Assembly: GCA_903830625.1 (NCBI GenBank)
Contig: CAIKUK010000024.1
Span: 1 to 60,933 of the forward strand
Length of the DNA: 60,933 bases
From: Candidatus Yanofskybacteria bacterium
GTDB taxonomy: Bacteria; Patescibacteriota; Minisyncoccia; 2-02-FULL-40-12; GWA2-44-9
Reading direction: 5' to 3'
This document shows positions 38,293 to 60,933 of the stretch, one piece after another. Positions within the stretch are counted from its first letter, which is position 1. Each line of letters begins with the position of its first letter. The notes under the pieces are model-generated. The model saw only the letters and a list, made by a program, of their open reading frames with translations. It was not told the DNA's origin and ran no database searches. A program made the position numbers and the translations under genes.

Positions 38293-38302
38293 GGATAGTT
38301 TG

Positions 38303-38420
38303 AGGCTCCGAGCCTGCCATGAGTTGGGTTGTACGATCATTATCCCTCCTTGATTGGGCATAACCCTATTCAATAAAAGAGCATAATCTTTTATTATGAA
38401 TCATGGCAGGCTCGGAGCCT
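38303..38420. repeat. 118-bp inverted-repeat element
   Basis: Perfect 20-bp inverted repeat AGGCTCCGAGCCTGCCATGA / TCATGGCAGGCTCGGAGCCT. Confidence 0.7.
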
Positions 38421-38431
38421 TAACTCACTTG

Positions 38432-43783: not shown

Positions 43784-44860
43784 ATGAATAAATTTGTGGC
43801 AGCACTGGTATTGTTGGTCAGCATTTTTTCAAGCGCGTTTTCTTTTACAAATGCCCAAGATGGGCCGATACTGACGGCGACATTGGACAGCCAAACACCG
43901 GTGGCGAGAAGTATATCAGCTGGCGCTCAAAATATCGATGTGGCCAGGATTACTTTAACCGCATCAGTGGGTGATGTAATAATAGAAGGTATCTACCCAG
44001 GAACAGATGTGCCGGGCGGTTTGAGTAATTTTACCAATATTTTTATATATGACGTAACCTCTGGTTCTGAACCTACTCTGGTTGGCACATATCCCAATGC
44101 AAGTGCCAATCCTAATCTGATTAAATTCACTAACTTCGTTACTGTTTATAATAATGGTACAAACAAGACATATTTGATACGAGCGAGTCTGTCGTCTTCA
44201 GCGGCTGGCAATGTCCGGGTTGGTTTCAGCGGGGTCACTTTTCCAGGTGTAAATACGCCAACCTTGATTAGTATTCCTATATACGGCAATGTCATGACCT
44301 TGCCTGGAGTGGTGGCGACACCGACCCCAACTCCGACACCGAGCCTCTCGCCTACACCGACCCCTTCTTTAAGTCCGGAGCCGACACCAACTCCCTCGCC
44401 ATTGATTACTCCCGGTTCACTTGGATTTACTAGTTTAGCTGCCCTTAATCTTCGTGAGGGAAATACTATCAGCGCCATTGGCTCAAATGACCCCGATATT
44501 TACATTATCAACGATTGGGGGTATAAAAGATTATTCCTAAATCCAATTATCTTCAGTTTTTACGGTCATTTAGGTGGATTTGCCAAAGTAAAAAATATCA
44601 CACCTCAAACAAATAGCTTACTGGTAACTTCTGGTCTTTTTAGGAATTGCGAAACTAACGACCCTAAAGTATATGGCGTGGAAGTGACCGGAGAGGATAC
44701 TGGTATATTGCACTGGATAAACACCTCAGGTGCTCAAGCCGTTCAGGATGATTCAGATTTCTTCAAAAAAGTTTTCTGTGTAAACTCAAATGAATTCAAC
44801 TGGTATACCAAAGGTTCCGATTACGCTTCAGTCAATCAAGTTTCCATATATACTCGCTAA
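43784..44860 (+). CDS. Secreted protein: Ig-like repeat, TP linker, S-layer-type Cys-pair domain (start ATG 43784)
   Basis: Signal peptide MNKFVAALVLL...; C-terminal domain paralogous to the S-layer N-terminus; promoter TTGAAA-N17-TATACT 6 nt upstream. Confidence 0.8.
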   Translation: MNKFVAALVLLVSIFSSAFSFTNAQDGPILTATLDSQTPVARSISAGAQNIDVARITLTASVGDVIIEGIYPGTDVPGGLSNFTNIFIYDVTSGSEPTLVGTYPNASANPNLIKFTNFVTVYNNGTNKTYLIRASLSSSAAGNVRVGFSGVTFPGVNTPTLISIPIYGNVMTLPGVVATPTPTPTPSLSPTPTPSLSPEPTPTPSPLITPGSLGFTSLAALNLREGNTISAIGSNDPDIYIINDWGYKRLFLNPIIFSFYGHLGGFAKVKNITPQTNSLLVTSGLFRNCETNDPKVYGVEVTGEDTGILHWINTSGAQAVQDDSDFFKKVFCVNSNEFNWYTKGSDYASVNQVSIYTR

Positions 44861-44904
44861 CAATTAATAAATAATTTTCCGATAGTTATATTGGGCTTAA
44901 ACCA

Positions 44905-45426
44905 ATGAAAATACCAAAAAATATCTACATTTATTCAATTATCGCCACAGTCATCGTTGGGGCGGTAATATTCTGGATTAGCCGGGCGGACAATAAAATT
45001 GATGATGTTGTGGATATGTCAACTCTCTTTGGTGCCAGCCCCAGTCCGGATCAGTCTCCTCTTCCATCTCAAACTCCCAGATTATCCAATAACACCCCCA
45101 AGCCGACACCAGGAATTATCGTTAGTGAGGTGGCCAGTTACCAGTCTTGGGTTAAGTGGCTTGATCCTCAAAATAGGCGCTTGGCTTTAGATGAGGACTG
45201 TACTAGTATTGTGCCATCGCAAGTTGATTATCCAAACAATGTTGAAGTAATGCTCGATAATTCAGCTTCGAATAAGCCTCGGATTTTAAAAATTGGCAGT
45301 CAAAATTATTCCCTTAACGCTCAAGGCTGGATAGTTACTACTCTTCACAGTGAAACACTTCCGGCAAAACTGACGATGTTTTGCGGAGATATGGAGTTAG
45401 GACAACTTGACCTGGTAGCCAAATAG
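44905..45426 (+). CDS. Membrane-anchored hypothetical protein (possible cupredoxin-like beta domain)
   Basis: N-terminal TM, Pro/Ser linker, C...C beta-rich domain. Confidence 0.7.
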   Translation: MKIPKNIYIYSIIATVIVGAVIFWISRADNKIDDVVDMSTLFGASPSPDQSPLPSQTPRLSNNTPKPTPGIIVSEVASYQSWVKWLDPQNRRLALDEDCTSIVPSQVDYPNNVEVMLDNSASNKPRILKIGSQNYSLNAQGWIVTTLHSETLPAKLTMFCGDMELGQLDLVAK

Positions 45427-45430
45427 AAAA

Positions 45431-45474
45431 TAAGAAACCTAAAACTCCCCTCGAGGGGAGTTTTAGGTTTCTTA
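45431..45474. terminator. Bidirectional terminator
   Basis: Perfect 44-bp palindrome TAAGAAACCTAAAACTCCCC-TCGA-GGGGAGTTTTAGGTTTCTTA between convergent genes. Confidence 0.85.
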
Positions 45475-46671
45475 AAGCAGTTTTTCTATTTGTTTAATTG
45501 TAGTTTCAATATTGAAGGCAAAGAGAACGCGTTGGTGAGCCTGGATGCCCATCTCTTGGGCTCGGGAATTGTTATCAATAAGTACGATGACCTTTTCTGA
45601 TATTTGGCCCGGATTTCTCGGTTCGACGATGTATCCACTTACGCCGTCCTCTATTATTTCGGGGATTGCTCCAACTCGGGTGGCAATGACCGGTAATTTG
45701 GCGGCCATGGCCTCCAAAATGGCCCAAGGGAAGCCTTCTTTTACCGAAGGCAGGACAAACAGGTCAAAAGCTTTTAGGTATCTGGCCGCTTGCTCTCTAT
45801 GGCCAGTAAGGATTACTTTTTCGTCTAACCCCTTGCTCTGGATTAGTTTTTTGAGGCCAGTTCGGCCTTCTCCATCTCCGATAATGCACCATATGACATC
45901 TTCCCGGCCCATTATTTGGGCGGCTCCAATTAGATACTCTAAACCTTTGGCTGGGTAAAAATTAGCAATAGTGCCGACAATTTTTTTCGACAAGGGGAGA
46001 CCTAGTTTGGAGCGAGCTTCATCTTTTTCTAGAAAATTAATTTTATAAGGGTCAAGGCCGTTATGAATTAAAACAAGACTCTGGCGGGGTTTAATGCCAA
46101 TTTCTTTGGCTTGGTCTAGATCACGAGCATTATTAACAATGATGACATCTTTCCAAGGAGCGCTTATCTTTTCGAGTGTTTGCCAGAGTCTCTTTTTCCA
46201 CACTGGCCAAGGATCATTGAACGTCCAACCACCAATACGATAAACTACTTTCGGTCGCGGGTGGCAAAATTTTGACGCTAGTGCTCCAATAAAACCAGCC
46301 TTAGAGCTGGCTAAGAAAAGAGTATCAGGTTTGAATTTTTGGATACATTTTTTAATTTGATCGATGGCTCTAAGATCGGAAAATGGACTAACATTCCGTT
46401 TAAGCGACGAAAGGGTGAGAGCAGGGATTCCGAGGTCGATTAAGGCATGAGTAAATGAACCATCGCCATCAGTTCCGACGGCCACGGTAATATCGTAAGC
46501 ATCTTTCTCTAGTTGTTTGATAAATTGAAGAATAAACTGCTGGGCGCCACCCAGTTCCGATTGGGTAATAACAAATAGAACCCGCTTTTTGGGAACTGGA
46601 GGTGTGCCACCAAAGGCATTGACCCCCACACCTAACGGGTAGTTACTGTTTTTATTTCCATGTTCAGGCAT
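45472..46671 (-). CDS. GT4 glycosyltransferase; N-terminus supplied by an inserted element
   Basis: VLFVITQSELGGAQ, GTIANFYPAKG, KEGFPWAILEAMAAKLPVIAT. Confidence 0.9.
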   Translation of the reverse strand: MPEHGNKNSNYPLGVGVNAFGGTPPVPKKRVLFVITQSELGGAQQFILQFIKQLEKDAYDITVAVGTDGDGSFTHALIDLGIPALTLSSLKRNVSPFSDLRAIDQIKKCIQKFKPDTLFLASSKAGFIGALASKFCHPRPKVVYRIGGWTFNDPWPVWKKRLWQTLEKISAPWKDVIIVNNARDLDQAKEIGIKPRQSLVLIHNGLDPYKINFLEKDEARSKLGLPLSKKIVGTIANFYPAKGLEYLIGAAQIMGREDVIWCIIGDGEGRTGLKKLIQSKGLDEKVILTGHREQAARYLKAFDLFVLPSVKEGFPWAILEAMAAKLPVIATRVGAIPEIIEDGVSGYIVEPRNPGQISEKVIVLIDNNSRAQEMGIQAHQRVLFAFNIETTIKQIEKLL

Positions 46672-46755
46672 ATATTATTTTTATTAAATATAATTCCAAG
46701 CAGTTCTTATCTAGACGACAGCTACTAAGGGATATCTACCCGTTAGGTGTGGGGG
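46623..46755. mobile_element. 133-bp TIR element with 4-bp target duplication (copy e)
   Basis: 20-bp perfect TIR CCCCCACACCTAACGGGTAG / CTACCCGTTAGGTGTGGGGG; TTGA on both flanks; excision restores an in-frame ATG at 46772. Confidence 0.85.
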
Positions 46756-46796
46756 TTGATAGGAGCGTCCATTTATGTTAAAATATTAGCACATTA

Positions 46797-47090
46797 CCCC
46801 CACACTCACAAGGTTTTATGCATTTCGTCTATATCATAAAAAGTAAGGTAAATAAGGACTTATATATGGGGTGTACGGGTGATTTAAAGAAGAGATTTAC
46901 TGAACATAATTCCAATCAGGTTCCATCAACGAAGAACAAAGGACCGTACGAATTAATATACTACGAAGCGTATAAATCAGAGAAGGATGCTTTCAAGCGA
47001 GAGAAAAATCTTAAGCTAAGAGCTAATGCTCTCACCGGGCTGAAGAGAAGACTTTTGGAAAGTCTTAACTAAACCTTGTGAGTGTGGGGG
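46797..47090 (+). mobile_element. 294-bp TIR cassette carrying a GIY-YIG nuclease (copy f)
   Basis: 20-bp perfect TIR CCCCCACACTCACAAGGTTT / AAACCTTGTGAGTGTGGGGG; TA on both flanks; gene fills the whole interior. Confidence 0.85.
46818..47072 (+). CDS. Small GIY-YIG nuclease (UPF0213-like)
   Basis: HFVYII...LYMGCTGDLKKRFTEHN, YELIYYEAY, AFKREKNLK. Confidence 0.9.
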   Translation: MHFVYIIKSKVNKDLYMGCTGDLKKRFTEHNSNQVPSTKNKGPYELIYYEAYKSEKDAFKREKNLKLRANALTGLKRRLLESLN

Positions 47091-47093
47091 TAT

Positions 47094-48260
47094 ATGCAGG
47101 AAAAATCAACAGAAATCCTCGGCCGGCTAAAGCACGGCCAGGAGACCATTCCGAGAAGAATTTTGATACTATCAACTGCCTACCTGCCTCAAGTGGGCGG
47201 TTCGGAACTGGCTATAAAAAACATTACCGACCGTTTGCCTGAATTTGATTTTGACCTGATTACCTCTAAATTTTCACCGGACATCCCCTCGTTTGAAAAG
47301 ATTGGCAATGTTAATGTTTGCCGTGTCGGCAATGCTTTGAGTCGGTTTTCTTTTTTGTTACCTAAGAACTTTTTGCCAATTGCTGTATTTTTAAAGGCGC
47401 GGCAATTAATATCTCAACATGGTGTCTATGGTTTTATTCATGCTTATCAAGCTTCGCAGGCTGCTGGCGGTGGCTGGTTACTTAAATTATTTTATCCACA
47501 AATCCCGTTTTTAGTTACAGTGCAGGAAGGAAAGAATTTAATAAACCAGCCGTGGCTTACTAAAACTTTTAGAGGTTTGATATTCAATAAAGCCAACCGG
47601 GCGACTGCAATCAGTAATTATCTGGCGGAATATATTGTCTCTCAAAACAAAAATTTGCCCGTGACGATAATCCCCAATGGTGTAGATTTGCAAAAATTCG
47701 CGATGTCCAGCCAAGAAATTTTAAATAATCGGACAATTATTACCGTCTCGCGATTAGTTGAAAAAAATGGGGTCAAAGATCTGGTTGAAGCTATGGCGAT
47801 TGTTGTAAAAAAGATTAACGATGCCAAATTGTTTATAGTGGGCGATGGTTATCAAAAAGAAGAATTGATCAAAAGAACAAAAACCCTGGAACTGGAAAGC
47901 AATGTTGAGTTTTTAGGTGAAATTTCAAATGAAGAACTGCCAAAGTATTTGATCAAAGCCACAGTGTTTGTCCGGCCATCCTTGTCGGAAGGGTTAGGGA
48001 TTGCCTTTTTGGAAGCGATGGCTTCAGGAATAGCCATAATTGGCACGCCAGTCGGGGGGATACCTGATTTTTTGAAAGACAGAGAAACGGGTTTGTTTTG
48101 CGAGCCTGAAAATCCACAAGATATTGCTAATAAAATAATAGAAATTATAGAAAATAAAGATCTAAGACAGAAACTAGTTAAAAATGCCAGGAAGTTGGTT
48201 GAAGAAAAATACGATTGGAATAACATTGCGCAAGAATTTAAGAAAATTTATGGCCAATAA
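47094..48260 (+). CDS. GT4 glycosyltransferase
   Basis: YLPQVGGSE, TVSRLVEKNG, SEGLGIAFLEAMASG. Confidence 0.92.
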   Translation: MQEKSTEILGRLKHGQETIPRRILILSTAYLPQVGGSELAIKNITDRLPEFDFDLITSKFSPDIPSFEKIGNVNVCRVGNALSRFSFLLPKNFLPIAVFLKARQLISQHGVYGFIHAYQASQAAGGGWLLKLFYPQIPFLVTVQEGKNLINQPWLTKTFRGLIFNKANRATAISNYLAEYIVSQNKNLPVTIIPNGVDLQKFAMSSQEILNNRTIITVSRLVEKNGVKDLVEAMAIVVKKINDAKLFIVGDGYQKEELIKRTKTLELESNVEFLGEISNEELPKYLIKATVFVRPSLSEGLGIAFLEAMASGIAIIGTPVGGIPDFLKDRETGLFCEPENPQDIANKIIEIIENKDLRQKLVKNARKLVEEKYDWNNIAQEFKKIYGQ

Positions 48261-49416
48261 AAGTATTATTATCGCCACCGGTATTTTTTCACCCGACATC
48301 GGCGGACCGGCTTCGTATGCTCGGACTATTGCCAGTCGGCTGGCGACATCTAGAAAAGTGACAGTGGTAACTTATTCTTCTGTTTGGAATTCGCTCGCCG
48401 ATTCGAAGTTGCCTTTTAGAGTGGTGAGAATCTGGGCCAAATGGCCGAAAGGGATTAAACACGGCATATATTTTATAAGAATGTTGTTTGAAGCGAGAAA
48501 GGGTAAAGTTGTTTTTGCTCTGAACGCCGTGAGTGCGGGGATACCGGCTCGTTTTGCAGCCCGGGCGTTCAAAAGAAAATTTATTGTCAAAATTGTCGGC
48601 GATTCAGCGTGGGAACGGGCGATTAGCAATAATAAAACTTCTCTACTACTCAATGATTTTCAGAAAACAAAACGTTCGGGTTGGGCGCGAATATTGCATG
48701 CGTTGCAATGCTCAGTTTGCAAAGGTGCTTACACGATTATTGTTCCGTCGGAGTATCTAAGCAAAATTGTTGAGGGGTGGGGCATTTCCAAAGAAAAGAT
48801 CAGGGTTGTTTATAATGGTTCCGATTTTGAAGCTTCTCCGTTATCCAAAGAAGAAGCCAAGAAAAAACTGGGTATTTCGGGAAATGTTTTATTTACTTGG
48901 GGTCGGCTCGTACCGTGGAAAGGTTTTCGGATGTTAGTTAAGATTATGCCCAAGCTTGCCGAGGTAAACCAGTTCTTTAAATTGGTAATCGTCGGTTCTG
49001 GGCCGGATAAGTCTATTCTTGAGGCCATGATTAAAAACATGAGACTGGAGCGAAAAGTAATTCTGGCGGGCCGAAAGAATCTGAAAGAAGTGGCCGAGTA
49101 TCTGGCCGCGGCCGATATCGCCATTTTGAATAGCGGCTATGAGGGATTTTCACATCAAATCATTGAGGCGATGATTGCGGGTGTGCCCTTGATTACGACG
49201 AACGCTGGCGGGAATAAAGAAATTATTCATCAGGGCCAGAATGGGATTATGGTTAAATACAACGACGAGTTTAATTTAATCGAAGTCATTAGGGCGCTCT
49301 GGAACAATCCGGAAATGCAGGAACATTTTATTGAAGAAGGCAAAAAAACCGCCGCCTATTTCAGTGTTGAAAAAATGTTTGATGAAACAATAGCCTTATT
49401 AATTTCGAATTTATAA
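48250..49416 (+). CDS. GT4 glycosyltransferase
   Basis: PDIGGPASY, GRLVPWKG, YEGFSHQIIEAM.AGVP. Confidence 0.9.
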   Translation: MANKSIIIATGIFSPDIGGPASYARTIASRLATSRKVTVVTYSSVWNSLADSKLPFRVVRIWAKWPKGIKHGIYFIRMLFEARKGKVVFALNAVSAGIPARFAARAFKRKFIVKIVGDSAWERAISNNKTSLLLNDFQKTKRSGWARILHALQCSVCKGAYTIIVPSEYLSKIVEGWGISKEKIRVVYNGSDFEASPLSKEEAKKKLGISGNVLFTWGRLVPWKGFRMLVKIMPKLAEVNQFFKLVIVGSGPDKSILEAMIKNMRLERKVILAGRKNLKEVAEYLAAADIAILNSGYEGFSHQIIEAMIAGVPLITTNAGGNKEIIHQGQNGIMVKYNDEFNLIEVIRALWNNPEMQEHFIEEGKKTAAYFSVEKMFDETIALLISNL

Positions 49417-49861
49417 TTATAAATTTTGAATAAAATTAGAATGACCGAAGATAAAAAACGAATTTATGATTTAGAAGAGAGAACGGCCATATTTGGGCAG
49501 AATATTATTAGTTTATGTAAGAGTGTGAAGGTAAATAATATTTCCAGTCCACTAATTAACCAAATTATTAGATCTGGTACTAGTATTGGGGCCAATTACA
49601 TGGAAGCGAATGCCGCATCTTCAAAGAAAGATTTTATTAACAAGATCTCTATATGCAAGAAAGAAGCCCAAGAGACTAAGCACTGGCTTAGGATGCTAGA
49701 CTTTTATGATAACCAGCTTACATTGATGCGAGATTTGAAACAGGAGTGTGGAGAGTTAGTTTTAATTTTTGGTAGAATTCTTAGTTCATCAAGATCGGAA
49801 AAGTTTGAAAATTGAAAATTCAGTTATTTATTCAAAATTCTAAATTCATCATTCAAAATTA
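49407..49861. repeat. Inverted heptamer-repeat arrays flanking a four-helix-bundle gene
   Basis: Upstream GAATTTA-TAATTAT-AAATTTT-GAATAAA; downstream heptamers including a 13-bp inverted match AATTTTGAATAAA (49422-49434) / TTTATTCAAAATT (49827-49839). Confidence 0.6.
49441..49815 (+). CDS. Four-helix-bundle protein (23S rRNA-IVS-like family)
   Basis: DLEERT, QIIRSGTSIGANYMEA, KKDFINKISICKKEAQETKHWL, EL..IF. Confidence 0.9.
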   Translation: MTEDKKRIYDLEERTAIFGQNIISLCKSVKVNNISSPLINQIIRSGTSIGANYMEANAASSKKDFINKISICKKEAQETKHWLRMLDFYDNQLTLMRDLKQECGELVLIFGRILSSSRSEKFEN

Positions 49862-49866
49862 ACACT

Positions 49867-50952
49867 ATGAATCTATTAATGGTTACAGGGCTTGGTTCGG
49901 CCACAGATTTGGCTCAAGGTAAAAAGGGCGCCTTTTATAATACCTTGGAAGAATTTCATAAATATTGGGAACGGATTGATATTATAATTCCCCGAGTCAG
50001 TAATCCTCAAGTTGCCGAGTTGTTTGGAAATGTTTTTCTCCACACATCCCCATGGCCTCTTATATTGCATCCATTATTTTTTATTAGAAAAGGAATTAGT
50101 CTGCATAAAAAATATCATTTCAATTTAATGACGGTTCAGGATTTTCCGCCTTTCTATAATGGTATCGGCGCATTTTTACTTTGGTGCGGAATTCGAGTCC
50201 CCTATATATTAGAGATTCACCATATTCCTGGTTATCCAAAGTCAGCAAACCTTAAAGAATGGTTGTACCGCATATATGCCAGACTTTTTCTAGGCTTGGA
50301 CGCATGGCCGGCCCGAGCAATCCGTGTAGTTAATAAGCACCAGACGAAAGAATTTTTGATTCGAGTGGGCGTATCGGCCTCTAAAATTATATATATCCCT
50401 TCTCTCTATATCGACCAGAGCATATTTCATCCGACCAACGATCCTAAAGAATACGACCTTATATTTGTAGGGCGCTTAGCCGAAAATAAAGGTATAGATC
50501 TCTTTATTGCTACGTCTAAAAAGCTTGGCATAAAAACTCTTATCATTGGAGATGGACCGGAACGAGAACGTATTCAAAAAGAGATATTTGGACAGAGTAA
50601 CATAACTTTTCATGGCTGGGCTAAAGATTCTCATGAGGTGGCAGATCTTTTAAATAAGTCACGATTACTTATTATGCCTTCTTTTAATGAGGGCGGGCCG
50701 AGGGTGGTGGTGGAAGCAATGGCCTGTGGAGTGCCGGTTTTAGCAACACCCGTCGGAATCGTTCCTGATATTAAAGATGCCTGTACGGTTATTGATTGGA
50801 AGGTGGACGATATTGTTAATAAAATTCGCCACCTTTTGAGCGACGAACAAACATATGAATCCAAAGTTAAGCTTGGACTGGAAGTAGTCAAACAATTCAA
50901 AAAAGAACTTGCCGTTAAAAATTATGCCGAAAAACTACAGAGTTTAATATGA
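49867..50952 (+). CDS. GT4 glycosyltransferase
   Basis: FVGRLAENKG, NEGGPRVVVEAMACGVPV. Confidence 0.88.
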   Translation: MNLLMVTGLGSATDLAQGKKGAFYNTLEEFHKYWERIDIIIPRVSNPQVAELFGNVFLHTSPWPLILHPLFFIRKGISLHKKYHFNLMTVQDFPPFYNGIGAFLLWCGIRVPYILEIHHIPGYPKSANLKEWLYRIYARLFLGLDAWPARAIRVVNKHQTKEFLIRVGVSASKIIYIPSLYIDQSIFHPTNDPKEYDLIFVGRLAENKGIDLFIATSKKLGIKTLIIGDGPERERIQKEIFGQSNITFHGWAKDSHEVADLLNKSRLLIMPSFNEGGPRVVVEAMACGVPVLATPVGIVPDIKDACTVIDWKVDDIVNKIRHLLSDEQTYESKVKLGLEVVKQFKKELAVKNYAEKLQSLI

Positions 50953-51998
50953 AGAATATACTTATAATCACACAGAAAGTTAACGCCAAAGATGATTTAC
51001 TTGGGTTTTTTGTCGGATGGTTACACGAATTTTCAAAAAACTTCGAAAAAGTCTTTGTTATTACTCTTGAAAAAGGCGCTTATGAGTTGCCCAAAAATGT
51101 TTTTGTATATTCGCTTGGAAAGGAAAATAGTAATTTAAAAATCGCTCGGGCTCTCACCTTCTATAAGTTATTATTTCAACTCGTCCCTAAGACGGACGGC
51201 GTATTTGCTCATATGTCTCCAGTTTTTGCTATTGCTTCATGGCCGGTGGCAGTGCTTTATAGGAAAAGAATAATTTTGTGGTATTTGCACCGTTCCGTAA
51301 CTGGTCGCCTAAAACTGGCTGAAAAATTATGCTATAAAATCGTGACCGCATCCAAAGAAAGCCTTAAGTTAATAAGTTCCAAAGTAATTGAAATCGGCCA
51401 CGGCATACAAGTAGAACAATTTAAGACAGTCAGAAATTGGCCGAACAAAAAATTAGAGATCTTAAGCGTCGGAAGAATATCCAGGATAAAGGATTATGAA
51501 ACCTTACTTGAAGCGGCAAAAATATTAAAAGATAAAGATCTTAATTTTCAAGTCAAAATAGTTGGCCAGCCAATCATGGTGCCAGATTTTAAATACCAAA
51601 AATTATTAGTCTCTCTGCAAGAAAAACTTGAGCTTAAAGATGTTGTTGAATTTGTAGGGTTTGTCCCATACAGCCAAATGGTTCGATATTATAAAGAAAC
51701 AGACTTAGTTATCGGCCTTACACCTTATGGAGGAATAGACAAGGTGATATTAGAAGGCATGGCTTCGGGTTGTTTGGTGCTGACTTCAAACGAAGCCAAT
51801 CGTAGATATTTTGGGCATTACGCTGATAATCTTATTTTTAATCATCATGATTCGGTCCATCTTGCCCACAAAATAGAATCATTAAATTGTATGCCGGCCG
51901 AACAAAAAAAAGAAATGAGCGAATTTTTAGTCCGGTCGGTTGAACAAAATCATAATCTAACAAATTTAATAAATAGAATCAGTAAATTATATGAATAA
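50949..51998 (+). CDS. GT4 glycosyltransferase
   Basis: VGRISRIKD, GGIDKVILEGMASG. Confidence 0.85.
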   Translation: MKNILIITQKVNAKDDLLGFFVGWLHEFSKNFEKVFVITLEKGAYELPKNVFVYSLGKENSNLKIARALTFYKLLFQLVPKTDGVFAHMSPVFAIASWPVAVLYRKRIILWYLHRSVTGRLKLAEKLCYKIVTASKESLKLISSKVIEIGHGIQVEQFKTVRNWPNKKLEILSVGRISRIKDYETLLEAAKILKDKDLNFQVKIVGQPIMVPDFKYQKLLVSLQEKLELKDVVEFVGFVPYSQMVRYYKETDLVIGLTPYGGIDKVILEGMASGCLVLTSNEANRRYFGHYADNLIFNHHDSVHLAHKIESLNCMPAEQKKEMSEFLVRSVEQNHNLTNLINRISKLYE

Positions 51999-53088
51999 GG
52001 ATAAACAGATTTCTGTTCTGTATTTTGGTTCCTATAGTCTCAATAATTCCAGGAATGCAATCTTAATGAGGGGGCTAAAGGAGAATGGCGTCAGGATTTT
52101 AGAATGCAACGACCATTCAAAGTTTTATATTTTGAAATATATTAAACTTCTTTTTAAATATTTAAAATATATTGGCAAATTTGATGTTATGGTGGTTGGG
52201 TTCGCCGGGCAAGAGATGATGCCACTGGCGAGGGTGTTAACGCGAAAACCGATTTTTTTTGATGTGTTCACTTCCCATTATATGGGCTATATTCTAGACC
52301 GTAAATATTTTTCTCCGCAAAGTCTACGTGCCAAGTATTACCATTTTATCGATAAATTTTCTTGTTGGTTGGCTGATATTGTCATTTTGGACACTCAAGC
52401 CCATATCGAATATTTTATTAAAGAATTCAATATCCCTAGGGGTAAATTAATAAAAGTGCCACTAGGCGCGAATTCAGAACTGTTTCGGCCCCATCCGCAT
52501 CTCAAAGGTCAAGACAAAGGTTTTAGGGTGGTTTTCTGGGGCACGTTTATTCCTCTCCAAGGAATAAAATACATAATCGAAGCAGCGAAACTACTTGATG
52601 GCGACGGAGTCGATATATTCATCATTGGCAACGGCGGACAGACATATGAACACGATAAAAAATATGCCGATGAATTGAAATTGAATAATTTACACTTTTT
52701 AGGTAGACTTCTACCGGGCAAGATGGAGGCAGGTGAACTAAATCGGCAGATCGCAATGGCTGATGTTTGTCTTGGGTGTTTTGGTGAGAGTATTAAGACT
52801 GATGTTACAATACAAAACAAAATTTTCGAGACACTGGCTTCCAGCAAGGCCCTACTAACAGCTAGAACGACTGCGCTTCAGGAGCTTTTGGTTGATGGCA
52901 AGCATTGTTTAATGTGTCGTGCGGCTGACACAAAGGACTTGGCCGACAAAATAACAATCCTGAAAAATGACACTATTCTTAGAAATAGTATATCCGAGGA
53001 AGGTTATAAGTTTTTTGTCGGTAACTTATTAGAACGAAAGTTGGGGAGCATCGTTCTTGGAGCAATTCAACAAATGATTAAAACGTAA
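51991..53088 (+). CDS. GT4 glycosyltransferase
   Basis: [21 protein letters not shown]. Confidence 0.82.
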
Positions 53089-53090
53089 AA

Positions 53091-54146
53091 ATGAAAAACG
53101 CTCTTATAACTGGTTCGTCTGGTCTTATCGGCTCTGAAGCTGTAAGATTTTTTAGTGACAAAGGTTATAAAATTGTAGGTATTGATAATAACATGCGGCA
53201 GTATTTTTTTGGTAAAGAGGCCAGTACCACATGGAACAGAAAACAGTTAGAGGACGAGTTAGGAAGTAAGTATCGTCACCATAACATTGATATTCGCAAT
53301 AATAAGAAGATTGAAGAATTATTTAAGCACAACAAGTTTGATATAATCATCCATACTGCCGCTCAACCCAGCCATGATTGGGCAGCCAAGGAACCCATTA
53401 CAGACTTTACTGTCAATGCACTTGGAACTTTGGTGCTCTTGGAAAACTATAGGAAATACTGCCCCGACGCAACATTTATATACACCTCAACTAACAAGGT
53501 TTATGGTGATACACCAAACCTACTACCCTTAGTTGAATTAAATAAGAGATATGAAATTGACAAGAAACACAAATATTTTAAAAATGGAATTGATGAATCA
53601 ATGAGTATGGATCAAAGTAAGCATAGTATTTTTGGAGCTTCAAAATTGGCTGCCGATATTATGGTGCAGGAGTACGGGAGGTATTTTAATTTACCAACCG
53701 CCGTTTTCCGTGGAGGTTGTTTGACCGGGCCGGCCCATAGCAGTACTCAATTGCATGGATTCTTAGCTTATTTGGCAAAGTGTATTATGACCGGCAAAAA
53801 ATATACCATTTTTGGCTATAAAGGTAAGCAAGTAAGAGACAATATTCATTCTTATGATCTAGTCAACATGTTTTGGCATTTTCATAAAAACCCTCGTTTC
53901 GGTGAAGTGTATAATGCGGGGGGTTCAAGACACTCAAACATTTCAATACTTGAGGCAATTGATAAAATTGAGCAGGTAACTGGCAAAAAATCTATTTACG
54001 AATATGTTGAGCAGAACAGATCGGGGGACCATATGTGGTATATTTCCGATGTTTCAAAATTCAAATCGCATTATCCCAAATGGAACTATACTTACAACAT
54101 AGATGATATTATTGTGGATCTCTGTCAATCAGGACATCTTGTATGA
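53091..54146 (+). CDS. NAD-dependent epimerase/dehydratase (CDP-paratose 2-epimerase-like)
   Basis: [38 protein letters not shown] (YxxxK variant), KGKQVRD. Confidence 0.85.
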
Positions 54147-54889
54147 TAAAAAAAATTATTAAACTTTTTTATTATTCTTTAGTTCGATATTTTCCGGCTC
54201 GAGGAGTTGTTGTCTTGATGTATCATTCGGTTGGTGATAACAGTGAATTTTTTACCGTTTCTGCCGCTGATTTTGAAAAACAGATGGCCTATCTGGCCGA
54301 GAATAATTACCACGTATTGTCTGTCTCCAAAGCAATTGAATTATTTGAGGGCGGTCGGGAGCTTCCGCCTAAAACTGTCATAATAACATTTGATGATGGC
54401 TATAAAGATAACTACGATTACGTTTTCCCGGTCCTCAAAAAATATGGGTTTTCGGCGGCTATTTTTATTGTGACTGGTTCCGTGGGCGGTGCCAGGACCA
54501 CAACTAAAGGTACGGCTCTGCCAACTTTAAATTGGCAACAGATAAAAGAGATGGCAGATAGCGGTCTTGTGGAATTCTTTCCACATTCTCACACTCATCC
54601 GAAGCTTGATCTTATCTCCGACGAGGATATACGATATGAAGTTCAGACTTCCAAAAATATCTTAGAGAAGGAACTTGGCAAGAAAATGACCAATTTTGCG
54701 TATCCTTATGGCCGAAGCAATCAAAAAGTCAGGGATATTCTTGACCAAGAATATTTTCGCTCCGCATTTACAGTTAAGACAGGGCGAATATCCAGCAAAA
54801 CCAATTTAATGTTGCTTAATAGAAATTCAATTGATTCTAAAGTAACGCCGGCCATGTTCAAGGGGATAGTTCATTATGGTAGGATTTAA
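54143..54889 (+). CDS. Polysaccharide deacetylase (NodB-like)
   Basis: [28 protein letters not shown]. Confidence 0.9.
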
Positions 54890-54890
54890 T

Positions 54891-56066
54891 ATGCGTAAAA
54901 TTTTTATAACCTCATATCCTTACGTTTATGAAAGATATTTCAAGGTTTTTGATTTTTTCCCAGAGAAAGAAAAGTTATTTTTTATTCTCCCGAATACTTG
55001 GGAGGCCAAGGGAGGTAAGATAAAAGTTAAGACTCCAGTTCGTCAAGATATTAAAATAATTAGTACCGAAGCATATTTTTTCCACTCCCATTACCCAATT
55101 ATCAGGGGGTTATTAAAAGGTTGGATGCCAAGAGCTAAAAATATAATTAAACAAAACGCAAAATTGGGCGATATCATATATACCGCAATTGAGCCTAATT
55201 TGCTGACCACTTACTTCAATGCTCGTCTTGCTAAAAAACTTGACCTGAAGCATGTGTTCTTTACCTGGCAAAACGTACCCTACAAGTCGCGGCTTCGGGG
55301 ACTAAAATTGAAATTTACGGAACATATCATTAAAAAAACAATTCAAAATTCGGCAGGCGCGATTTGTGGTAACCATAAGGCGGCAGAAATACTAAGAAGT
55401 TATGCTACCACAGATTTTAAAATTCTAGTTGCTCCTATTTCTGGTGTTGATACTGAAAAGTTCAGCCCTAGTATTAATTCTGATTTTAGGGTAAAAAATA
55501 ATCTAGATAATAAAATTATTATTACTTTTGCCGGCGTTTTTGATAAAAGAAAAGGAATTAATACGCTCCTTGATGCTTTTCTTTTATCATTAAATAAGAA
55601 TCCGGATTTACATTTGGTCATGATCGGTACTGGACCGCTTGAAGATTTTATACACGATTTTGTTAATCAGAATAAGCTACAAAATGAAATTACTGTAATT
55701 CCTTGGTTACCAAATGAACAGTTGCCCGGTGTTTTTGCGGGCTCTAATATTTTTGTTCATCCATCGGAACCAAGTGGAGGCTGGGAAGAACAGTTCGGTT
55801 ATTCTATGGCTGAAGCATCCGCTTCAGGTTTACCAATAATATCAACGAATACGGGGTCTATTAATGAAATTGTTATTGATGGAGAAACGGGTAAACTGGT
55901 TGAAGCGAAAAATCCGGAACAACTTAGTCAAGCAATAGAAATTTTATCCGCTAACCGTTCATTAAGACAGCAAATGGGAGTGAATGCTCGAAAGTACATC
56001 GAGAGCAATTTTAGCCATCGCGTTGTGGCCGATAAATTTAATAATTTTTTTAGAGAGCTAAATTAA
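54891..56066 (+). CDS. GT4 glycosyltransferase
   Basis: GVFDKRKG, WEEQFGYSMAEASASGLP. Confidence 0.88.
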   Translation: MRKIFITSYPYVYERYFKVFDFFPEKEKLFFILPNTWEAKGGKIKVKTPVRQDIKIISTEAYFFHSHYPIIRGLLKGWMPRAKNIIKQNAKLGDIIYTAIEPNLLTTYFNARLAKKLDLKHVFFTWQNVPYKSRLRGLKLKFTEHIIKKTIQNSAGAICGNHKAAEILRSYATTDFKILVAPISGVDTEKFSPSINSDFRVKNNLDNKIIITFAGVFDKRKGINTLLDAFLLSLNKNPDLHLVMIGTGPLEDFIHDFVNQNKLQNEITVIPWLPNEQLPGVFAGSNIFVHPSEPSGGWEEQFGYSMAEASASGLPIISTNTGSINEIVIDGETGKLVEAKNPEQLSQAIEILSANRSLRQQMGVNARKYIESNFSHRVVADKFNNFFRELN

Positions 56067-56067
56067 T

Positions 56068-57105
56068 ATGGATAATCAAGATAAAAAACGGGTCATTGTA
56101 ATCAGTCCGGCCGATTCATTCTTTACCATGCCTCATGTTAGGGCCTTTCAGACCTTGGGTTATGATTGTATTTCTTTTGACAATCGAAGTGGTAAATTAT
56201 ATTCCAGTTCAATCCTAAGGAAGTTGATGAGGGTTTTTCCGCGACTTCGGATTATTAAAAAAATCACTCTTGACCGAACGAACAGAAAGCTAATCTCTTT
56301 GGTTAATGATTATAAACCATTCTTAGTATTTGCAGTAAAGGCCGAGAATATTTATCCGGAAACCATTGAAGAGATTAAAAAGATGGGGGTGACAACCGCA
56401 TGTTTCTATATTGATCTAATGGACCATTGGCCGGTAATAAGCAAGATTGCACCGGTCTATGACCATTTTTTCAACCAATGTCATGTTGTGTTGCGTCGTC
56501 TTTGGAATGAGCTTAGGTTGAAGAATTGCCACTATATGGCCCATTCAACAGAACCTATTCCGGAGGATAAAATGCCTAGCGATAGAAAATATGATATTAC
56601 ATTCATTGGTACTCACAATAATGAGCTCTATCCTAATCGTGAAAAATATTTAATGGCCATCGCCGACCTTGGTCTGAATATCTGGGGGACCGACAGCTGG
56701 GCGGATACATCGTTAAAAAATTGTTTTCATGGCCGTTCATATGGCGATCAAAGGTTGGACATATATACCAATAGCAAGATTGTGATTGATATAAATTGGG
56801 ATGTCATGCCCGCTGAGGGTCTTAGTAATCGGCCGTTTGAAGTTACGGGTTGCGGGGCAATGTTCATGACCGATTATGTACGCGAGGATATAAAAAGGGC
56901 TTATGTTGAGGGCAAGGAAGTAGTATTATTTAGAGACGAGAACGAATTGAGACAAAAAGTTATTTACTACCTCGAGCACGAGAAAGAGAGAAAAGAGATT
57001 ATGAAAGCCGGATATGTAAAAACCGTAGCCCAACACACCTACATTGAACGAGTCAAGCAATTATTGGATACAATCGAAAATCCGGACAAATATTTATATA
57101 AATAA
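56068..57105 (+). CDS. CgeB-like glycosyltransferase
   Basis: ITFIGT, NRPFEVTGCGAMFMTD, G..KTVAQHTYIERV. Confidence 0.8.
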   Translation: MDNQDKKRVIVISPADSFFTMPHVRAFQTLGYDCISFDNRSGKLYSSSILRKLMRVFPRLRIIKKITLDRTNRKLISLVNDYKPFLVFAVKAENIYPETIEEIKKMGVTTACFYIDLMDHWPVISKIAPVYDHFFNQCHVVLRRLWNELRLKNCHYMAHSTEPIPEDKMPSDRKYDITFIGTHNNELYPNREKYLMAIADLGLNIWGTDSWADTSLKNCFHGRSYGDQRLDIYTNSKIVIDINWDVMPAEGLSNRPFEVTGCGAMFMTDYVREDIKRAYVEGKEVVLFRDENELRQKVIYYLEHEKERKEIMKAGYVKTVAQHTYIERVKQLLDTIENPDKYLYK

Positions 57106-57114
57106 TGTTAAAAT

Positions 57115-57579
57115 ATGGACACAATTAAACTTGCCGAAGAATTAAAAAAAATTACTCCATTCCCCAACATGCCCCGGGAAATTTTTGAATCTTTGAAAGG
57201 ATTATTGCCTATAACCGCGGTTGAATTATTGGTTATTCATCCGGATAATTCTTTTGTGTTGATTGAAAAGACCGGGCAGTTTAATGGTTGGGCATTGCCT
57301 AGTGGCTACATCGGTTTGAATGAAAGCCTTGAAGATGCTTGCCAGAGAGTAGCAGAAAGAGATCTTGGGGCTAAATTAAAATCTACTGACTTTATCACGG
57401 TCTTTAATTGGCCGAAAGGGGGCCAAAGATCAGGAGATGGCCATGCTATTTCACTCCTTTTTAAATGCGAAGTGCGCGGAAATATTAAAAATGGCAAATA
57501 TTTCAAAAAAATTCCTGAAGGAATTTTAGCGCATCATAAAATAATGATCGAGGCTTACTTTGAAAAATATGAAAAATAA
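57115..57579 (+). CDS. NUDIX hydrolase (NDP-sugar hydrolase-like)
   Basis: PITAVELL, WALPSGYIGLNESLEDACQRVAERDLG, H.ISL.F. Confidence 0.75.
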   Translation: MDTIKLAEELKKITPFPNMPREIFESLKGLLPITAVELLVIHPDNSFVLIEKTGQFNGWALPSGYIGLNESLEDACQRVAERDLGAKLKSTDFITVFNWPKGGQRSGDGHAISLLFKCEVRGNIKNGKYFKKIPEGILAHHKIMIEAYFEKYEK

Positions 57580-58270
57580 TGAAATTAGAGAATATTTTTC
57601 CAAATATCCCGAGCAAGCTTTCGCGCTGGTAAAACTCGAGACATTAATTTTTAATTCTGTTTCCGAGAAGTGCGAGCTAGTGTATCTATTTTCACAGACC
57701 CCCGATAATGAATCGTCAATCATAAACATCGGGGCCAAGATCTCAAAAGAAAATAGTTTGAATACCTCCGTGGAAACAAAAATAGGTATCTGTGGTTTGG
57801 AACATCCGGCTTGCAGTAAGCCCGAAGAAATAAAAAAGAGACTTATCAATAAGGGTGTCAGAAGCAAAGATATTATTGTAATTGATTATGATCATCCAGA
57901 TGTCGGAGTTGGCCGTAAATTCAGATTTTCTAACACTAAAATCGAAGCGGAAGCAGTTGTTAATTATTGTCTTCGCAATGGCATTGTGAAATTAGGCATT
58001 TGTTCTCCCCCTTTCCACCAAATCAGAGGTTATTTAACCGTGCTCGCCGCTCTGAAAAGAGCTGGGTTGGAAAATAAAATCGCAATTTACAATATTGTGG
58101 GAGAAACACTTGATTGGAATAAAAAAGCCGTTCACTCGCAAGGCACCACGATTGATTTGCGGAGCAATCTGATTGATAGCGAAATTTTGAGAATTTTCAA
58201 ATACTGGCAGGCAGGTGATTTAGCTTCTCCCGAGGAAGCAGTTAAATATTTCTTGGAACACTCTAAGTAA
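57569..58270 (+). CDS. Hypothetical protein, DUF218/YdcF-like fold (tentative)
   Basis: NTKIEAEA, SPPFHQIRGY motifs reminiscent of DUF218. Confidence 0.5.
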   Translation: MKNNEIREYFSKYPEQAFALVKLETLIFNSVSEKCELVYLFSQTPDNESSIINIGAKISKENSLNTSVETKIGICGLEHPACSKPEEIKKRLINKGVRSKDIIVIDYDHPDVGVGRKFRFSNTKIEAEAVVNYCLRNGIVKLGICSPPFHQIRGYLTVLAALKRAGLENKIAIYNIVGETLDWNKKAVHSQGTTIDLRSNLIDSEILRIFKYWQAGDLASPEEAVKYFLEHSK

Positions 58271-58335
58271 TTTTTTGCTTGATATTTGGCCCATTTTTTG
58301 GTATATTCCACCTAAAGTATAGGTTTTTGATTTAT

Positions 58336-60302: not shown

Positions 60303-60317
60303 ATAGAATAATATCCA

Positions 60318-60933
60318 ATGGTTCTAAAAAAGATAGACAAAAATGAGTTGGGCAGTTATTTAGACAAGATTGATTATATTGCCTACTCCGATTCTTTTGC
60401 CGAATTTGCCGAGAGTGCTTATAAAAGTCAACGTTCATTTGTTGGAGTTTTTGAAGATGGGAAATTAAAGGCATTTTTCCCTGTTTTTGAGAAAAAACAA
60501 GGAAATCAGAGTATTATTGAATTACCGCTGTTTATTTATACGGAAATATTTTTTGTCGACCAAAAATTTATTATTAATGGCTTTGAGTTGGGTCGCGAAT
60601 TGATTAAAAAGTTTAGATGTGATGTTTTGAGATTAAATATCTATAAGCCGTATTTTGCGGATAATTTTACAACAGATGGATTCCAGGAAATATTCACAAC
60701 CATGATCATTTCTTTAGAGGGTGTTAATAGTTTTGAAGATTATTTGATGAATTCCATAAGTAAAAACGCGCGGAGTAAGATTTATAAAGGACAAAATTCC
60801 GGATTCGAATTTATAGAGTTAACCGAGAAAGACTTGCCGGAATTCTATAATCTTTACCAACGCCATGTAAAATTATTGGATTCGGCTCCGCATTCAATAG
60901 ATTATTTTCAGAAAATAATAAACGCTCATAAGA
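60318..60933 (+). CDS. GNAT/FemAB-like acyltransferase, truncated by the window edge
   Basis: Open frame from ATG 60318 to the end: MVLKKIDK...ISKNARSKIYKG...EFYNLYQRH...YFQKI. Confidence 0.6.
   Translation, partial: MVLKKIDKNELGSYLDKIDYIAYSDSFAEFAESAYKSQRSFVGVFEDGKLKAFFPVFEKKQGNQSIIELPLFIYTEIFFVDQKFIINGFELGRELIKKFRCDVLRLNIYKPYFADNFTTDGFQEIFTTMIISLEGVNSFEDYLMNSISKNARSKIYKGQNSGFEFIELTEKDLPEFYNLYQRHVKLLDSAPHSIDYFQKIINAHK

Follow-up and report, generated by a model that had tools for sequence, protein, structure and literature searches.

A hairpin-ended, MITE-like insertion at the start of a glycosyltransferase gene, and an element family, common in Patescibacteria, with a GIY-YIG nuclease gene in its longer members

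Features at the locus

The window (the whole stretch of DNA that was analysed, 60,933 nucleotides from a Candidatus Yanofskybacteria bacterium) contains two divergently transcribed GT4 glycosyltransferase genes, with a 133-bp non-coding element at the start of one of them and, 40 bp away, a sister element of 294 bp that shares its CCCCCACAC ends (Table 1). Read directly from the plus strand, the junctions of the 133-bp element are ...GGCA-TTGA-CCCCCACACCTAACGGGTAG...CTACCCGTTAGGTGTGGGGG-TTGA-TAGGAGCGTCCAT. The original prediction had noted TTGA on both sides of this element, and all of its coordinates and translations were reproduced. The ends form a perfect 20-nt inverted repeat, extended to 24 nt at 96% by a repeat search (46622-46645 / 46733-46756). 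No complete start-to-stop ORF is present, and a 44-codon open frame spans the entire 135-nt stretch 46622-46756. As RNA, the 21-bp terminal stem was predicted to be very stable, at -52.9 kcal/mol (z = -7.5); past this stem the interior is neither structured nor conserved. No Rfam family matched the 133-bp element (best hit a plant microRNA, E = 0.15).

Searched with up to 3 mismatches, the arm 20-mer was found at two places only within the window (0 of 100 shuffles gave any match), and the window holds a single short copy (n = 1). Candidate matches from elsewhere were rejected. The sole exact match of the 20-nt arm in genome contigs (L001) was a single arm on a contig of 63% G+C and was attributed to chance, and a metagenome scan with the subfamily-specific 20-mer ATGCCTGAACATGNAAATAA returned 10 matches, all by chance, with the element absent.

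Table 1. Coordinates of the features at the locus, counted from the first letter of the window
Feature	Position	Strand	Description
GT4 glycosyltransferase, current reading	45472..46671	-	399 aa, MPEHGNKNSNYPLGVGVNAFGG...
TTGA, left copy of target-site duplication	46619..46622		TCAA on gene strand; within Ile5-Asn6 codons of original gene
133-bp element	46623..46755		Non-coding, hairpin-ended, MITE-like; A+T-rich interior with little structure besides the 20-bp terminal stem
Left arm CCCCCACACCTAACGGGTAG	46623..46642	+	Nucleotides 1-10, terminus found throughout the family; 11-20, copy-specific
Alternative in-frame GTG start	46627..46629	-	Inside arm, in terminal GGTGTGGGGG motif
Right arm CTACCCGTTAGGTGTGGGGG	46736..46755	+	Perfect complement of left arm
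Stranded original glycosyltransferase start	46743..46772	-	ATG GAC GCT CCT ATC AAC...; stop inside element
TTGA, right copy of target-site duplication	46756..46759		Read in sequence
Sigma-70-like promoter TTGATA-17-TAAAAT	46756..46784	+	10/12 matches, TG-extended; serves divergent neighbouring GT4
294-bp sister element	46797..47090		CCCCCACAC/GTGTGGGGG termini; arms 46797-46816 and 47071-47090
GIY-YIG nuclease gene	46818..47072	+	84 aa, single domain; only ORF of the sister element
Second GT4 glycosyltransferase	47094..48260	+	MQEKSTEILG...

Including the flanking TA, the arms of the sister element are perfect over 22 nt (46795-47092). Its 84-aa product matched Pfam PF01541 over residues 1-71 (E = 1e-16), and the nearest solved structures were the UPF0213 proteins 1ZG2 (PDB; E = 3.5e-5) and 1YWL. 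The match to TIGR01453 was weak and N-terminal (26 bits vs. a cut-off of 56); the protein is the catalytic domain alone and does not have the DNA-binding domain of known homing enzymes. The ATG of the second GT4 gene lies 3 nt past the core of the sister element, so the nuclease gene now precedes this gene in the same orientation.

Interruption of the glycosyltransferase gene

From the old ATG (46772-46770) the minus strand reads ATG GAC GCT CCT ATC AAC CCC CAC ACC TAA, which yields only MDAPINPHT*, as predicted. This stranded start is identical to that of the orthologous loci L003 and L217 over five codons and the first two bases of codon 6, which is AAC in the window and AAT in those loci, and it agrees with the N-termini of the orthologues P0001 and P0002. 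Deletion in silico of the element and one TTGA gave MDAPINAFGGTPPVPKKRVLF..., a 387-aa protein that starts MDAPINAFG in frame, as had been proposed. P0001 and P0002, the two closest orthologues, begin MDAPINAFG and agree exactly with the 387-aa length of the reconstruction.

The original prediction recommended that the empty allele be sought in related sequences, and it was present on related contigs in five orthologous loci (L003, L217, L216, L214 and L213), each with the exact predicted junction ATGGACGCTCCTATCAATGC... and a single, scar-free copy of TTGA. The insertion was absent from 119 of 120 homologues. An MPEHG-type N-terminus, rather than MDAPIN, had been named as the observation that would speak against an insertion; this check did not refute the insertion, as the MPEH-type N-terminus was found in one homologue of the 120 (P0026), and this one has the same element at the same site. 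A 22-bp spacer is conserved across all lineages. The 133-bp sequence is a real insertion into codons 5-6 (the sixth codon) of the GT4 gene.

Codons 1-14 of the current GT4 ORF, and part of codon 15, now lie within the element. A restart at 46671 had been proposed, and the interrupted gene has no in-frame ATG other than that at 46671-46669, which opens a 399-aa ORF; we infer that this element-borne ATG is the working start, with the in-frame GTG in the arm as the alternative. Because the element offers an in-frame ATG, the hit gene would survive, with its first 6 residues swapped for 18 new ones (MPEHGNKNSNYPLGVGVN). Both carriers (the window and L002, a locus in another genome) retain the 18-codon extension, and of the codon changes between them 5 are synonymous and 1 is non-synonymous; as an argument for the extension this is weak because the subfamily has just two copies. 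Two of the 5 synonymous changes are also stem-compensatory. A candidate internal promoter for the new ATG, TTGGAA-16-TAATAT, matched at 8/12 positions by eye; it was uncalled by the promoter scan and is not conserved in L002.

On the other side, the target TTGA is the -35 box of the promoter of the divergently transcribed neighbouring GT4 gene, and this box was left intact by the TTGA duplication. The same promoter site was found in L002 and in the empty locus L003.

A family of elements with shared ends

Public genomes, mostly of Patescibacteria, contained at least 100 short elements (115-144 bp) with these ends, and at least 76 GIY-YIG elements (approximately 280-310 bp) sharing them. A DNA scan using the termini only gave at least 119 loci, mostly in CPR MAGs, vs. 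approximately 17 expected by chance (an estimate), and several MAGs carry 3-4 copies. Every member ends CCCCCACAC(C)...(G)GTGTGGGGG. The two size classes differ in content, as the class of approximately 115-145 bp is geneless and the class of approximately 280-310 bp encodes only a single-domain GIY-YIG nuclease of approximately 85 aa. Among loci found via the protein, the ORF was bracketed by family termini in 31/80; in the DNA-only scan at a spacing of 260-290, 76 of the 88 A+T-rich matches had an intact GIY-YIG ORF. Pairs of termini at IS-like distances (700-2500 bp) were not seen in the fetched loci.

A 20-bp terminal stem is common to both classes, with the outer 10 pairs invariant and the inner 10 varying between copies yet complementary within each copy. 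Stem positions 11-20 each show 3-4 pair types and are Watson-Crick paired in 73-96% of copies, vs. 29-43% with shuffled partners (60% at position 12), and pairing is at background from position 22 on. Mismatches of G:T vs. A:C numbered 63 vs. 47, in an ungapped counting that is confounded by bulges, and these counts do not separate RNA, ssDNA and dsDNA constraint.

An exact 4-5-bp direct repeat flanked 72/123 short copies (approximately 5% by chance), and 66/103 of those at low-GC loci. The usual target duplication is 4 bp, TTNA/TNAA. For GIY-YIG elements, an exact 4-bp duplication was found in 24/77. No clean 4-bp duplication was found at the GIY-YIG element of the window, where the net insertion relative to the empty sites is the core plus 5 nt; a possible duplication there is AT/ATG (two or three bp) plus extra bases, and another is TA/TG, in which case every empty site differs by 3 nt.

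Hundreds of copies occur at unrelated places, some of them within tRNA genes and others at start codons. Those inside genes are confined to the first few or last few codons, and all 5'-end insertions supply in-frame starts from the element; the terminal GTG is likewise offered by other family members inserted at gene starts. This is a hairpin-ended mobile-element family, common in Patescibacteria (CPR) and present in some other uncultured phyla, which is undescribed: no description of MITEs or GIY-YIG-bounded mobile elements in CPR bacteria was found in the literature.

The evidence that short elements might be deletion derivatives of long ones did not hold up beyond the window: a 28-nt interior similarity between its short and long elements (1/500 shuffles) did not recur in L002 or in three other same-locus pairs.

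Age of the insertions and site preference

L002, whose GT4 orthologue is 62% identical, has the two elements exactly where the window has them; the sister element is missing from all five empty loci. The short element has kept a perfect 4-bp duplication in both the window and L002, and its two copies differ by two compensatory stem changes. Identity between the window and L002 was 80% for the short element and 85.5% for the GIY-YIG ORF, vs. 60-65% for the flanking glycosyltransferase genes. At fourfold-degenerate sites, 39% differed in the nuclease gene and 71-72% in the glycosyltransferase genes (saturated), and the nuclease-gene value is lower even than the host divergence between the window and L003 (43-52%). 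Codon changes in the nuclease gene (24 synonymous, 7 non-synonymous) indicate purifying selection. The coding flanks beside the elements showed no tract of raised identity. As the elements occupy the same two sites but are far less diverged than the host genes, these comparisons point to recent, independent, site-preferring insertion of both elements in the window and in L002.

The claim of mobility in the original prediction is accordingly borne out for insertion, by the five empty sites and by a family with 4-bp duplications, and not for excision. The original prediction had overlooked the neighbouring GIY-YIG element with its shared termini, the role of the TTGA target as a -35 box, and the spread of the family through other genomes. 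Precise excision had been suggested to switch glycan expression. Nothing shows excision; the empty sites do not support it, because never having been hit explains them equally, and no on/off switch is obvious, because both alleles encode an intact enzyme.

Proposed mechanism and alternatives

The 133-bp element is MITE-like in its size and lack of coding sequence, inverted ends, duplication with an empty site, and multiple copies. We consider it likely, as a whole explanation, that it is a non-autonomous MITE-like element that inserted at TTGA and brought a new ATG, with a GIY-YIG nuclease proposed to act on it in trans. The nuclease of the long elements would act on the short copies by recognising the conserved terminus at the hairpin base, probably in single-stranded or extruded DNA as in related Ssn nucleases, and would cut 4 nt outside the stem. 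Preferred targets would resemble the element end, G-rich and then TTNA.

A bolder form of this explanation is held tentatively, at somewhat below even chances. In it, the CCCCCACAC-ended elements of approximately 290 bp would be autonomous transposons with an approximately 85-aa GIY-YIG nuclease as their sole protein, moving through hairpin or single-stranded ends, making 4-bp duplications, and mobilising the copies of approximately 130 bp in trans. The build of their ends, with a terminal G run and an outward GTG, would allow a host to survive insertion at a start codon, a -35 box or the 5' end of a tRNA gene. If true, few autonomous mobile elements known would be smaller, and these would use a transposition chemistry so far unassigned to GIY-YIG enzymes. 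To our knowledge, GIY-YIG enzymes are not known as transposases, and the 84-aa protein has no evident strand-joining activity.

The strongest competitor, which we judge unlikely but worth serious weight, is that the elements are mobile but merely carry the GIY-YIG gene along, as cargo or hitch-hiker, and that another transposase (host- or element-encoded, e.g. a DDE or HUH enzyme from elsewhere in the genome) recognises the CCCCCACACC ends. DDE transposition classically duplicates 4 bp of target, no joining activity is known for GIY-YIG enzymes, and the duplication is clean in just 24/77 GIY-YIG elements; against this, no size class with these termini other than the GIY-YIG one bears an ORF (76/88 A+T-rich matches), and the fetched loci contained no termini pairs at 700-2500 bp. 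The nuclease ORF is also under purifying selection and accompanies the ends across phyla, and the inner-stem covariation suggests a hairpin substrate, which suits the Ssn-type ssDNA nucleases (PMC11893778) better than a DDE enzyme.

Spread of this copy by homing (cutting of the empty allele and repair from a filled donor) or by recombination of the whole inter-gene block, rather than by transposition, is improbable. It would account for both elements lying at identical sites beside glycosyltransferase genes just 60-65% identical, for elements much younger than their hosts, and for the adjoining nuclease gene. However, homing makes no duplication and both genomes have a perfect one of 4 bp, family members with duplications lie at many unrelated sites, and the 84-aa protein does not have the DNA-binding domain of known homing enzymes. 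Nor do the coding flanks next to the elements show a tract of raised identity, and conservation of the 22-bp spacer is in any case general to all lineages.

An ancient insertion, inherited vertically from the ancestor of the window and L002 and precisely excised in all intervening lineages (the history behind the switch idea), is very improbable: the shared site and arrangement in both carriers and the scar-free empty sites agree with it, but it needs many independent precise losses to leave 119/120 homologues without the insertion, and the fourfold divergence of the nuclease gene (39%) is below that of the flanks (71-72%) and below even that between the window and L003 (43-52%). A regulatory hairpin that evolved in place in the 5' region of the gene (attenuator, RNase III site or small RNA), instead of mobile DNA, can practically be dismissed, since the very stable RNA stem and the covariation, a classical sign of structured RNA, are set against target duplications, empty alleles, a stranded original start codon, hundreds of copies at unrelated places including tRNA genes and start codons, no Rfam match, and an interior that is unconserved and unstructured past the terminal stem.

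Implications

CPR genomes are tiny and streamlined, and across the radiation this family seems to be a major cause of insertions that has been overlooked, at promoters and start codons as well as at DnaA-box-like sites and tRNA genes. For annotation, the elements alter predicted N-termini, as in this glycosyltransferase, and split promoters; the conserved 10-nt terminus is a simple marker for spotting them in metagenomes.

Comparison with known systems

Integron attC sites have short conserved cores at the ends of an imperfect palindrome of approximately 60-140 bp, with a variable yet complementary interior, and are recognised as a folded single strand. They differ from the present elements in being used by a tyrosine recombinase and in flanking cassettes, with no target duplications and no internal nuclease gene.

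Prokaryotic MITEs such as Correia elements (Neisseria) and RPEs (Rickettsia) are, like the short elements here, approximately 100-150 bp and geneless, with inverted ends, a short duplication and many copies. Correia elements supply promoters and RPEs are translated in frame, with effects near or inside genes that are tolerated (PMC10969869); the same MITE review never mentions CPR bacteria. In contrast to Correia/RPE-like MITEs, the termini here are common to a GIY-YIG element of approximately 290 bp and not to a DDE-type insertion sequence, and copies differ freely from one another in the inner half of the inverted repeat, which nevertheless remains complementary. Correia elements duplicate TA, whereas the duplication here is 4 bp, TTNA.

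The IS200/IS605 and REP/RAYT systems are similar in their small size, essential end hairpins, single-strand mechanism and miniature derivatives (REP/BIME, PATEs), and in a target that resembles sequence beside the element end. These systems use HUH/Y1 transposases and subterminal local hairpins and make no target duplication, whereas here the candidate enzyme is GIY-YIG, the ends pair together and 4 bp are duplicated; an IS200/IS605-type assignment (HUH/Y1 TnpA, no duplication) was rejected on the GIY-YIG as only ORF and on the 4-bp duplication. Free-standing GIY-YIG homing genes (T4 Seg, I-TevI family) share the GIY-YIG domain, a selfish character and re-occupation of the same site across genomes. 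The elements here differ in having no DNA-binding domain (84 aa), inverted ends, duplications and non-coding derivatives, and a homing endonuclease gene was rejected on the catalytic domain alone, the TIGR01453 score (26 vs. 56 bits), and the inverted ends with duplications.

A further parallel is with the Ssn nucleases (Chenal et al., 2025, PMC11893778). As described there, these single-domain GIY-YIG proteins bind hairpin-forming DNA and cleave ssDNA site-specifically, a few nt away in the variable flank, and ssn genes have an IS-like repeat-gene-repeat layout, with SRM/NTS repeats that also stand alone in many copies. The present nuclease (84 aa) falls close to that single-domain size (approximately 85-95 aa), and its gene is likewise bracketed by repeats that also occur alone in many copies. 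The flanking repeats here, however, pair across the gene as a terminal inverted repeat and are not local 20-50-nt hairpins; the published degenerate SRM pattern (HGTCWY...RNCYNB) matched nowhere within 500 bp of the ORF, nor on either strand of the whole window. The present elements show target duplications, empty sites and discrete geneless derivatives of approximately 130 bp, and none of these came up in the available part of PMC11893778, where mobility is raised as a hypothesis only, through comparison with insertion sequences. The recently described Ssn-type GIY-YIG ssDNA nucleases gain a concrete mobile-element context here, in which the empty sites, duplications and geneless derivatives make it experimentally testable whether a bare GIY-YIG domain can move DNA.

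Insertion site and empty alleles

The 133-bp element belongs to a family of inverted-repeat elements, and this family, together with the bare GIY-YIG nuclease to which it is linked, is the larger result. On the + strand the insertion reads GGCA-TTGA-[CCCCCACACCTAACGGGTAG...CTACCCGTTAGGTGTGGGGG]-TTGA-TAGGAGCGTCCAT, and the arms lengthen to 24 nt at 96% in a repeat search. The stranded ATG at 46772 (minus strand) yields MDAPINPHT*. The original prediction of an insertion into a GT4 glycosyltransferase (GT) start is correct in its core, and its TTGA flanks, element length, MDAPINPHT* and ATG at 46671 were all re-read from the sequence. The arm had no further window occurrence with up to 3 mismatches allowed (0/100 shuffles matched), no Rfam family matched the element, and robust folding of the window copy was limited to the terminal stem.

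The reconstructed MDAPINAFG start was borne out by homologues and empty sites. The closest GT homologues are 387 aa, exactly 399 - 18 + 6; the two nearest (81% identity) begin MDAPINAFG, and most of the remainder M-x-x-x-I-N. The empty allele sought in relatives was found at five orthologous loci (L003, L217, L216, L214, L213), where the starts of the two divergent GT4 genes are separated by 22 bp. The sequence ...CATATGTGCTAATATTTTAACATAAATGGACGCTCCTATCAATGC... of L003 and L217 is the window minus the element and one TTGA, as predicted, and in-silico excision from the window gives the same MDAPINAFG-type protein. The proposed excision switch of glycan expression was unsupported.

Features of the insertion region and other repeats in the window
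Feature	Coordinates	Strand	Description
Short element	46623-46755		133 bp; perfect 20-nt inverted arms
GT4 glycosyltransferase ORF	45472..46671	minus	399 aa, ATG at 46671; Glycos_transf_1, 1.9e-39
Inverted repeat of sister element	46795-46816 / 47071-47092		Perfect, 22 nt
GIY-YIG nuclease ORF	46818..47072		84 aa; single domain, PF01541, 1e-16
Inverted-repeat pairs with common core	1074-1180; 14471-14551		Core ATCCCGTTAGA / TCTAACGGGAT
'23S rRNA-intervening sequence protein' family ORF	49426..49815		129 aa; PF05635, 3e-14
Inverted repeat enclosing the PF05635 ORF	49399-49862		36 nt, imperfect (78%)
Four further inverted-repeat pairs	21538-21803; 17168-17374; 38300-38423; 25765-25938		18-31 nt, 87-100% complementary, 78-204 nt enclosed
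Glycosyltransferase cluster	~44000-60933		G+C falls from ~0.44-0.52 to 0.37-0.40

Sister GIY-YIG element and arrival history

The original prediction was right about the insertion and had not noticed a gene-bearing sister element 40 bases away, in which a perfect inverted repeat encloses the nuclease ORF. The nearest structures to its protein are the UPF0213 proteins 1ZG2 and 1YWL. Termini ACCCCCACAC are common to this 294-bp element and the 133-bp element, whose ends are the motif's only four window sites. The 294-bp element is also missing at 5/5 empty loci. A stretch of the short element (46680-46707) matches codons FTEHNSNQV of the GIY-YIG gene (46896-46923) at 23/28 nt (1/500 shuffles reached the score), a similarity not reproduced in the other contig carrying both elements (L002) or in three further loci compared.

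L002 encodes P0026, a homologue with 62% identity to the window GT, which starts MPEHENKNSNYPLGVGVN and is roughly equidistant (~60%) from all other orthologues. L002 has the short element at the identical ATCAA|TCAATG junction; its GIY-YIG element occupies the same position, upstream of the second GT. The short-element arms differ from those of the window by two changes, each compensated in the opposite arm. Identity between window and L002 reaches 80% for the short element and 85.5% for the nuclease ORF (24 synonymous and 7 non-synonymous codons), against 65% and 60% for the flanking GT genes. Fourfold-degenerate differences are 39% in the nuclease gene and 71-72% in the GT genes; between the window and the empty relative L003 they are 43-52%. 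The elements thus entered the two lineages after these split, at the same two positions. Conservation of the 22-bp spacer is no sign of transfer of the whole inter-gene block, as all lineages share it. It is very unlikely that both elements were inherited vertically and then precisely lost many times, given the lower fourfold divergence of the nuclease gene and the absence of an element-derived N-terminus among the 119 homologues besides P0026; the MPEHG-type start was found in 1/120.

Short and long classes

One genome per species was scanned for the short class with CCCCCACACC-N(95-125)-GGTGTGGGGG, which gave at least 119 loci (~17 expected by chance, our estimate). Among the matches listed, the large majority were Patescibacteria (CPR) MAGs (Saccharibacteria, Paceibacterota and numerous named candidate phyla), frequently with multiple copies per genome; G+C-rich non-CPR matches look like noise. 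An exact 4-5-bp flanking direct repeat was present in 72/123 short copies among the matches listed (~5% by chance) and in 66/103 at low-GC loci, with the target consensus R|TNAA, equivalent to TTNA|Y. Stem positions 11-20, compared over 91 distinct A+T-rich copies, were variable (3-4 pair types each) and complementary within 73-96% of copies, vs 29-43% for shuffled partners, with position 12 higher at 60%; from position 22 on, pairing was at background. Family-wide, the A+T-rich interior shows no conservation. In three genomes (L011, L033, L108), a short element without direct repeat lies between near-identical flanks, GC(G/A)GCATTTT(C/T)A ... C(A/G)AGTTGC(C/T)GA(G/A), which looks like a conserved orthologous site.

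For the long class, a protein-led search found the ORF closely enclosed by ACCCCCACAC-type termini in 31/80 related loci. A DNA-only scan (same termini, 260-290 spacing) gave 88 A+T-rich matches; in 76 the GIY-YIG ORF was intact, and most others held decayed versions. In the loci retrieved, no termini pairs were seen at insertion-sequence-like distances. The stem is likewise 20 bp, the outermost pair covaries too (C:G, T:A, A:T), and 24/77 GIY-YIG elements had an exact 4-bp duplication. The gene-bearing class is tied exclusively to a GIY-YIG ORF under selection.

Target preference and survival of hit genes

The empty locus has a sigma-70-like promoter, TTGATA-17-TAAAAT (10/12 matches), predicted to serve the second GT, with its -35 hexamer overlapping codons 5-6 of the first. 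The short element entered the TTGA of this hexamer, and duplication left TTGATA intact; the GIY-YIG element, in our reading, separates the presumed -35 and -10 of the hit GT's old promoter. The promoter scan called no convincing internal promoter in the 133-bp element.

Recurrent targets in the family were -35-like cTTGAc, start codons aTGAA (11 cases) and DnaA-box-like tgtggATAA (7 cases). At aTGAA, the duplicated TG and the element's last G restore that codon as a GTG start. Copies with arms CCCCCACACC(A)TAACGAG form a subfamily inserting there, inside start codons followed by AA (L093, L042, L005, L017, L021, L010, L028, L052, L087); hosts, by N-terminus, include a putative peroxiredoxin (MKLKIGDKAPDF) and a putative triose-phosphate isomerase. 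Insertions at tgtggATAA duplicate ATAA (L022, L083, L113/L173, L117, L098, L082, L102) and hint that replication-origin or dnaA-promoter regions are among the sites hit. Some GIY-YIG elements (L286, L309, L220, L322, L266) directly follow GGGG at what by eye are apparent tRNA 5' ends (e.g. ...GGGCGCG|TAGCTCAGTCGG), where the terminal G run together with the duplicated 4 bp would restore the 5' strand of the acceptor stem.

Among short copies with clean duplications, 11/62 lay in ORFs, all within the first few or last few codons, and the six 5'-end insertions all gave in-frame starts from within the element. Either design or mere survivorship could account for such placement and element-borne starts. 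In the window GT, 46671 is the sole in-frame ATG. Compared with L002, its 18 added codons carry 5 synonymous changes and 1 non-synonymous one. This pattern favours the start no more than suggestively, since two of the synonymous changes also compensate in the stem; initiation might instead occur at a GTG (46629).

Proposed mechanism

Insertion duplicates 4 bp, the 10-bp ends are conserved and the next 10 bp are under hairpin constraint. We infer that the GIY-YIG nuclease mobilises both classes. The enzyme would recognise an end-like motif and cut 4 nt beyond, which fits targets often G-rich just ahead of the duplicated 4 nt (GGGG|NNNN at tRNA 5' ends, tgtgg|ATAA) and the occurrence of tandem elements with one TTGA in common. 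At L282 and L231 an element adjoins another element's end, with a single TTGA common to both (tandem or nested); the end of a resident element, with its duplication, may itself be favoured for insertion. The chance that the family is a new type of transposon is substantial.

Other repeats in the window

Two inverted-repeat pairs have the core ATCCCGTTAGA / TCTAACGGGAT in common, and CCCGTTAG is also present in the arm of the 133-bp element. The PF05635 ORF and its inverted repeat, between two glycosyltransferase-cluster genes, may be another small selfish cassette. The four further pairs, with 0 Rfam matches and 0 CCCCCACAC termini, could be further hairpin-ended insertions, or else structured RNAs. 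The glycosyltransferase cluster may have been acquired horizontally as a glycan island; frequent element traffic there would be in keeping with this.

Comparison with known systems

In full-text literature searches, neither MITEs in CPR bacteria nor GIY-YIG elements having both inverted ends and target duplications were the subject of any paper found, and none of the papers containing either terminal 10-mer was relevant as judged by title or abstract. CPR are unmentioned in a 2024 review of prokaryotic MITEs (PMC10969869), from which Correia elements (promoters) and RPE (in-frame insertions) are the nearest analogies. The family was rated as resembling two kinds, a MITE and an Ssn-type repeat-nuclease pair. 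Literature support for the proposed mechanism comes from Chenal et al. 2025 (PMC11893778), who showed that Ssn proteins, related single-domain GIY-YIG enzymes, bind a hairpin repeat as ssDNA only and cut a few nucleotides off, within the variable flank; the repeat-gene-repeat layout is likened there to an insertion sequence. The published SRM motif had 0 occurrences in the window. Each Ssn repeat forms its own hairpin, whereas here the two repeats pair together; compared with the Ssn systems described there, the present family further shows duplicated targets, empty sites and gene-less derivatives that are discrete.
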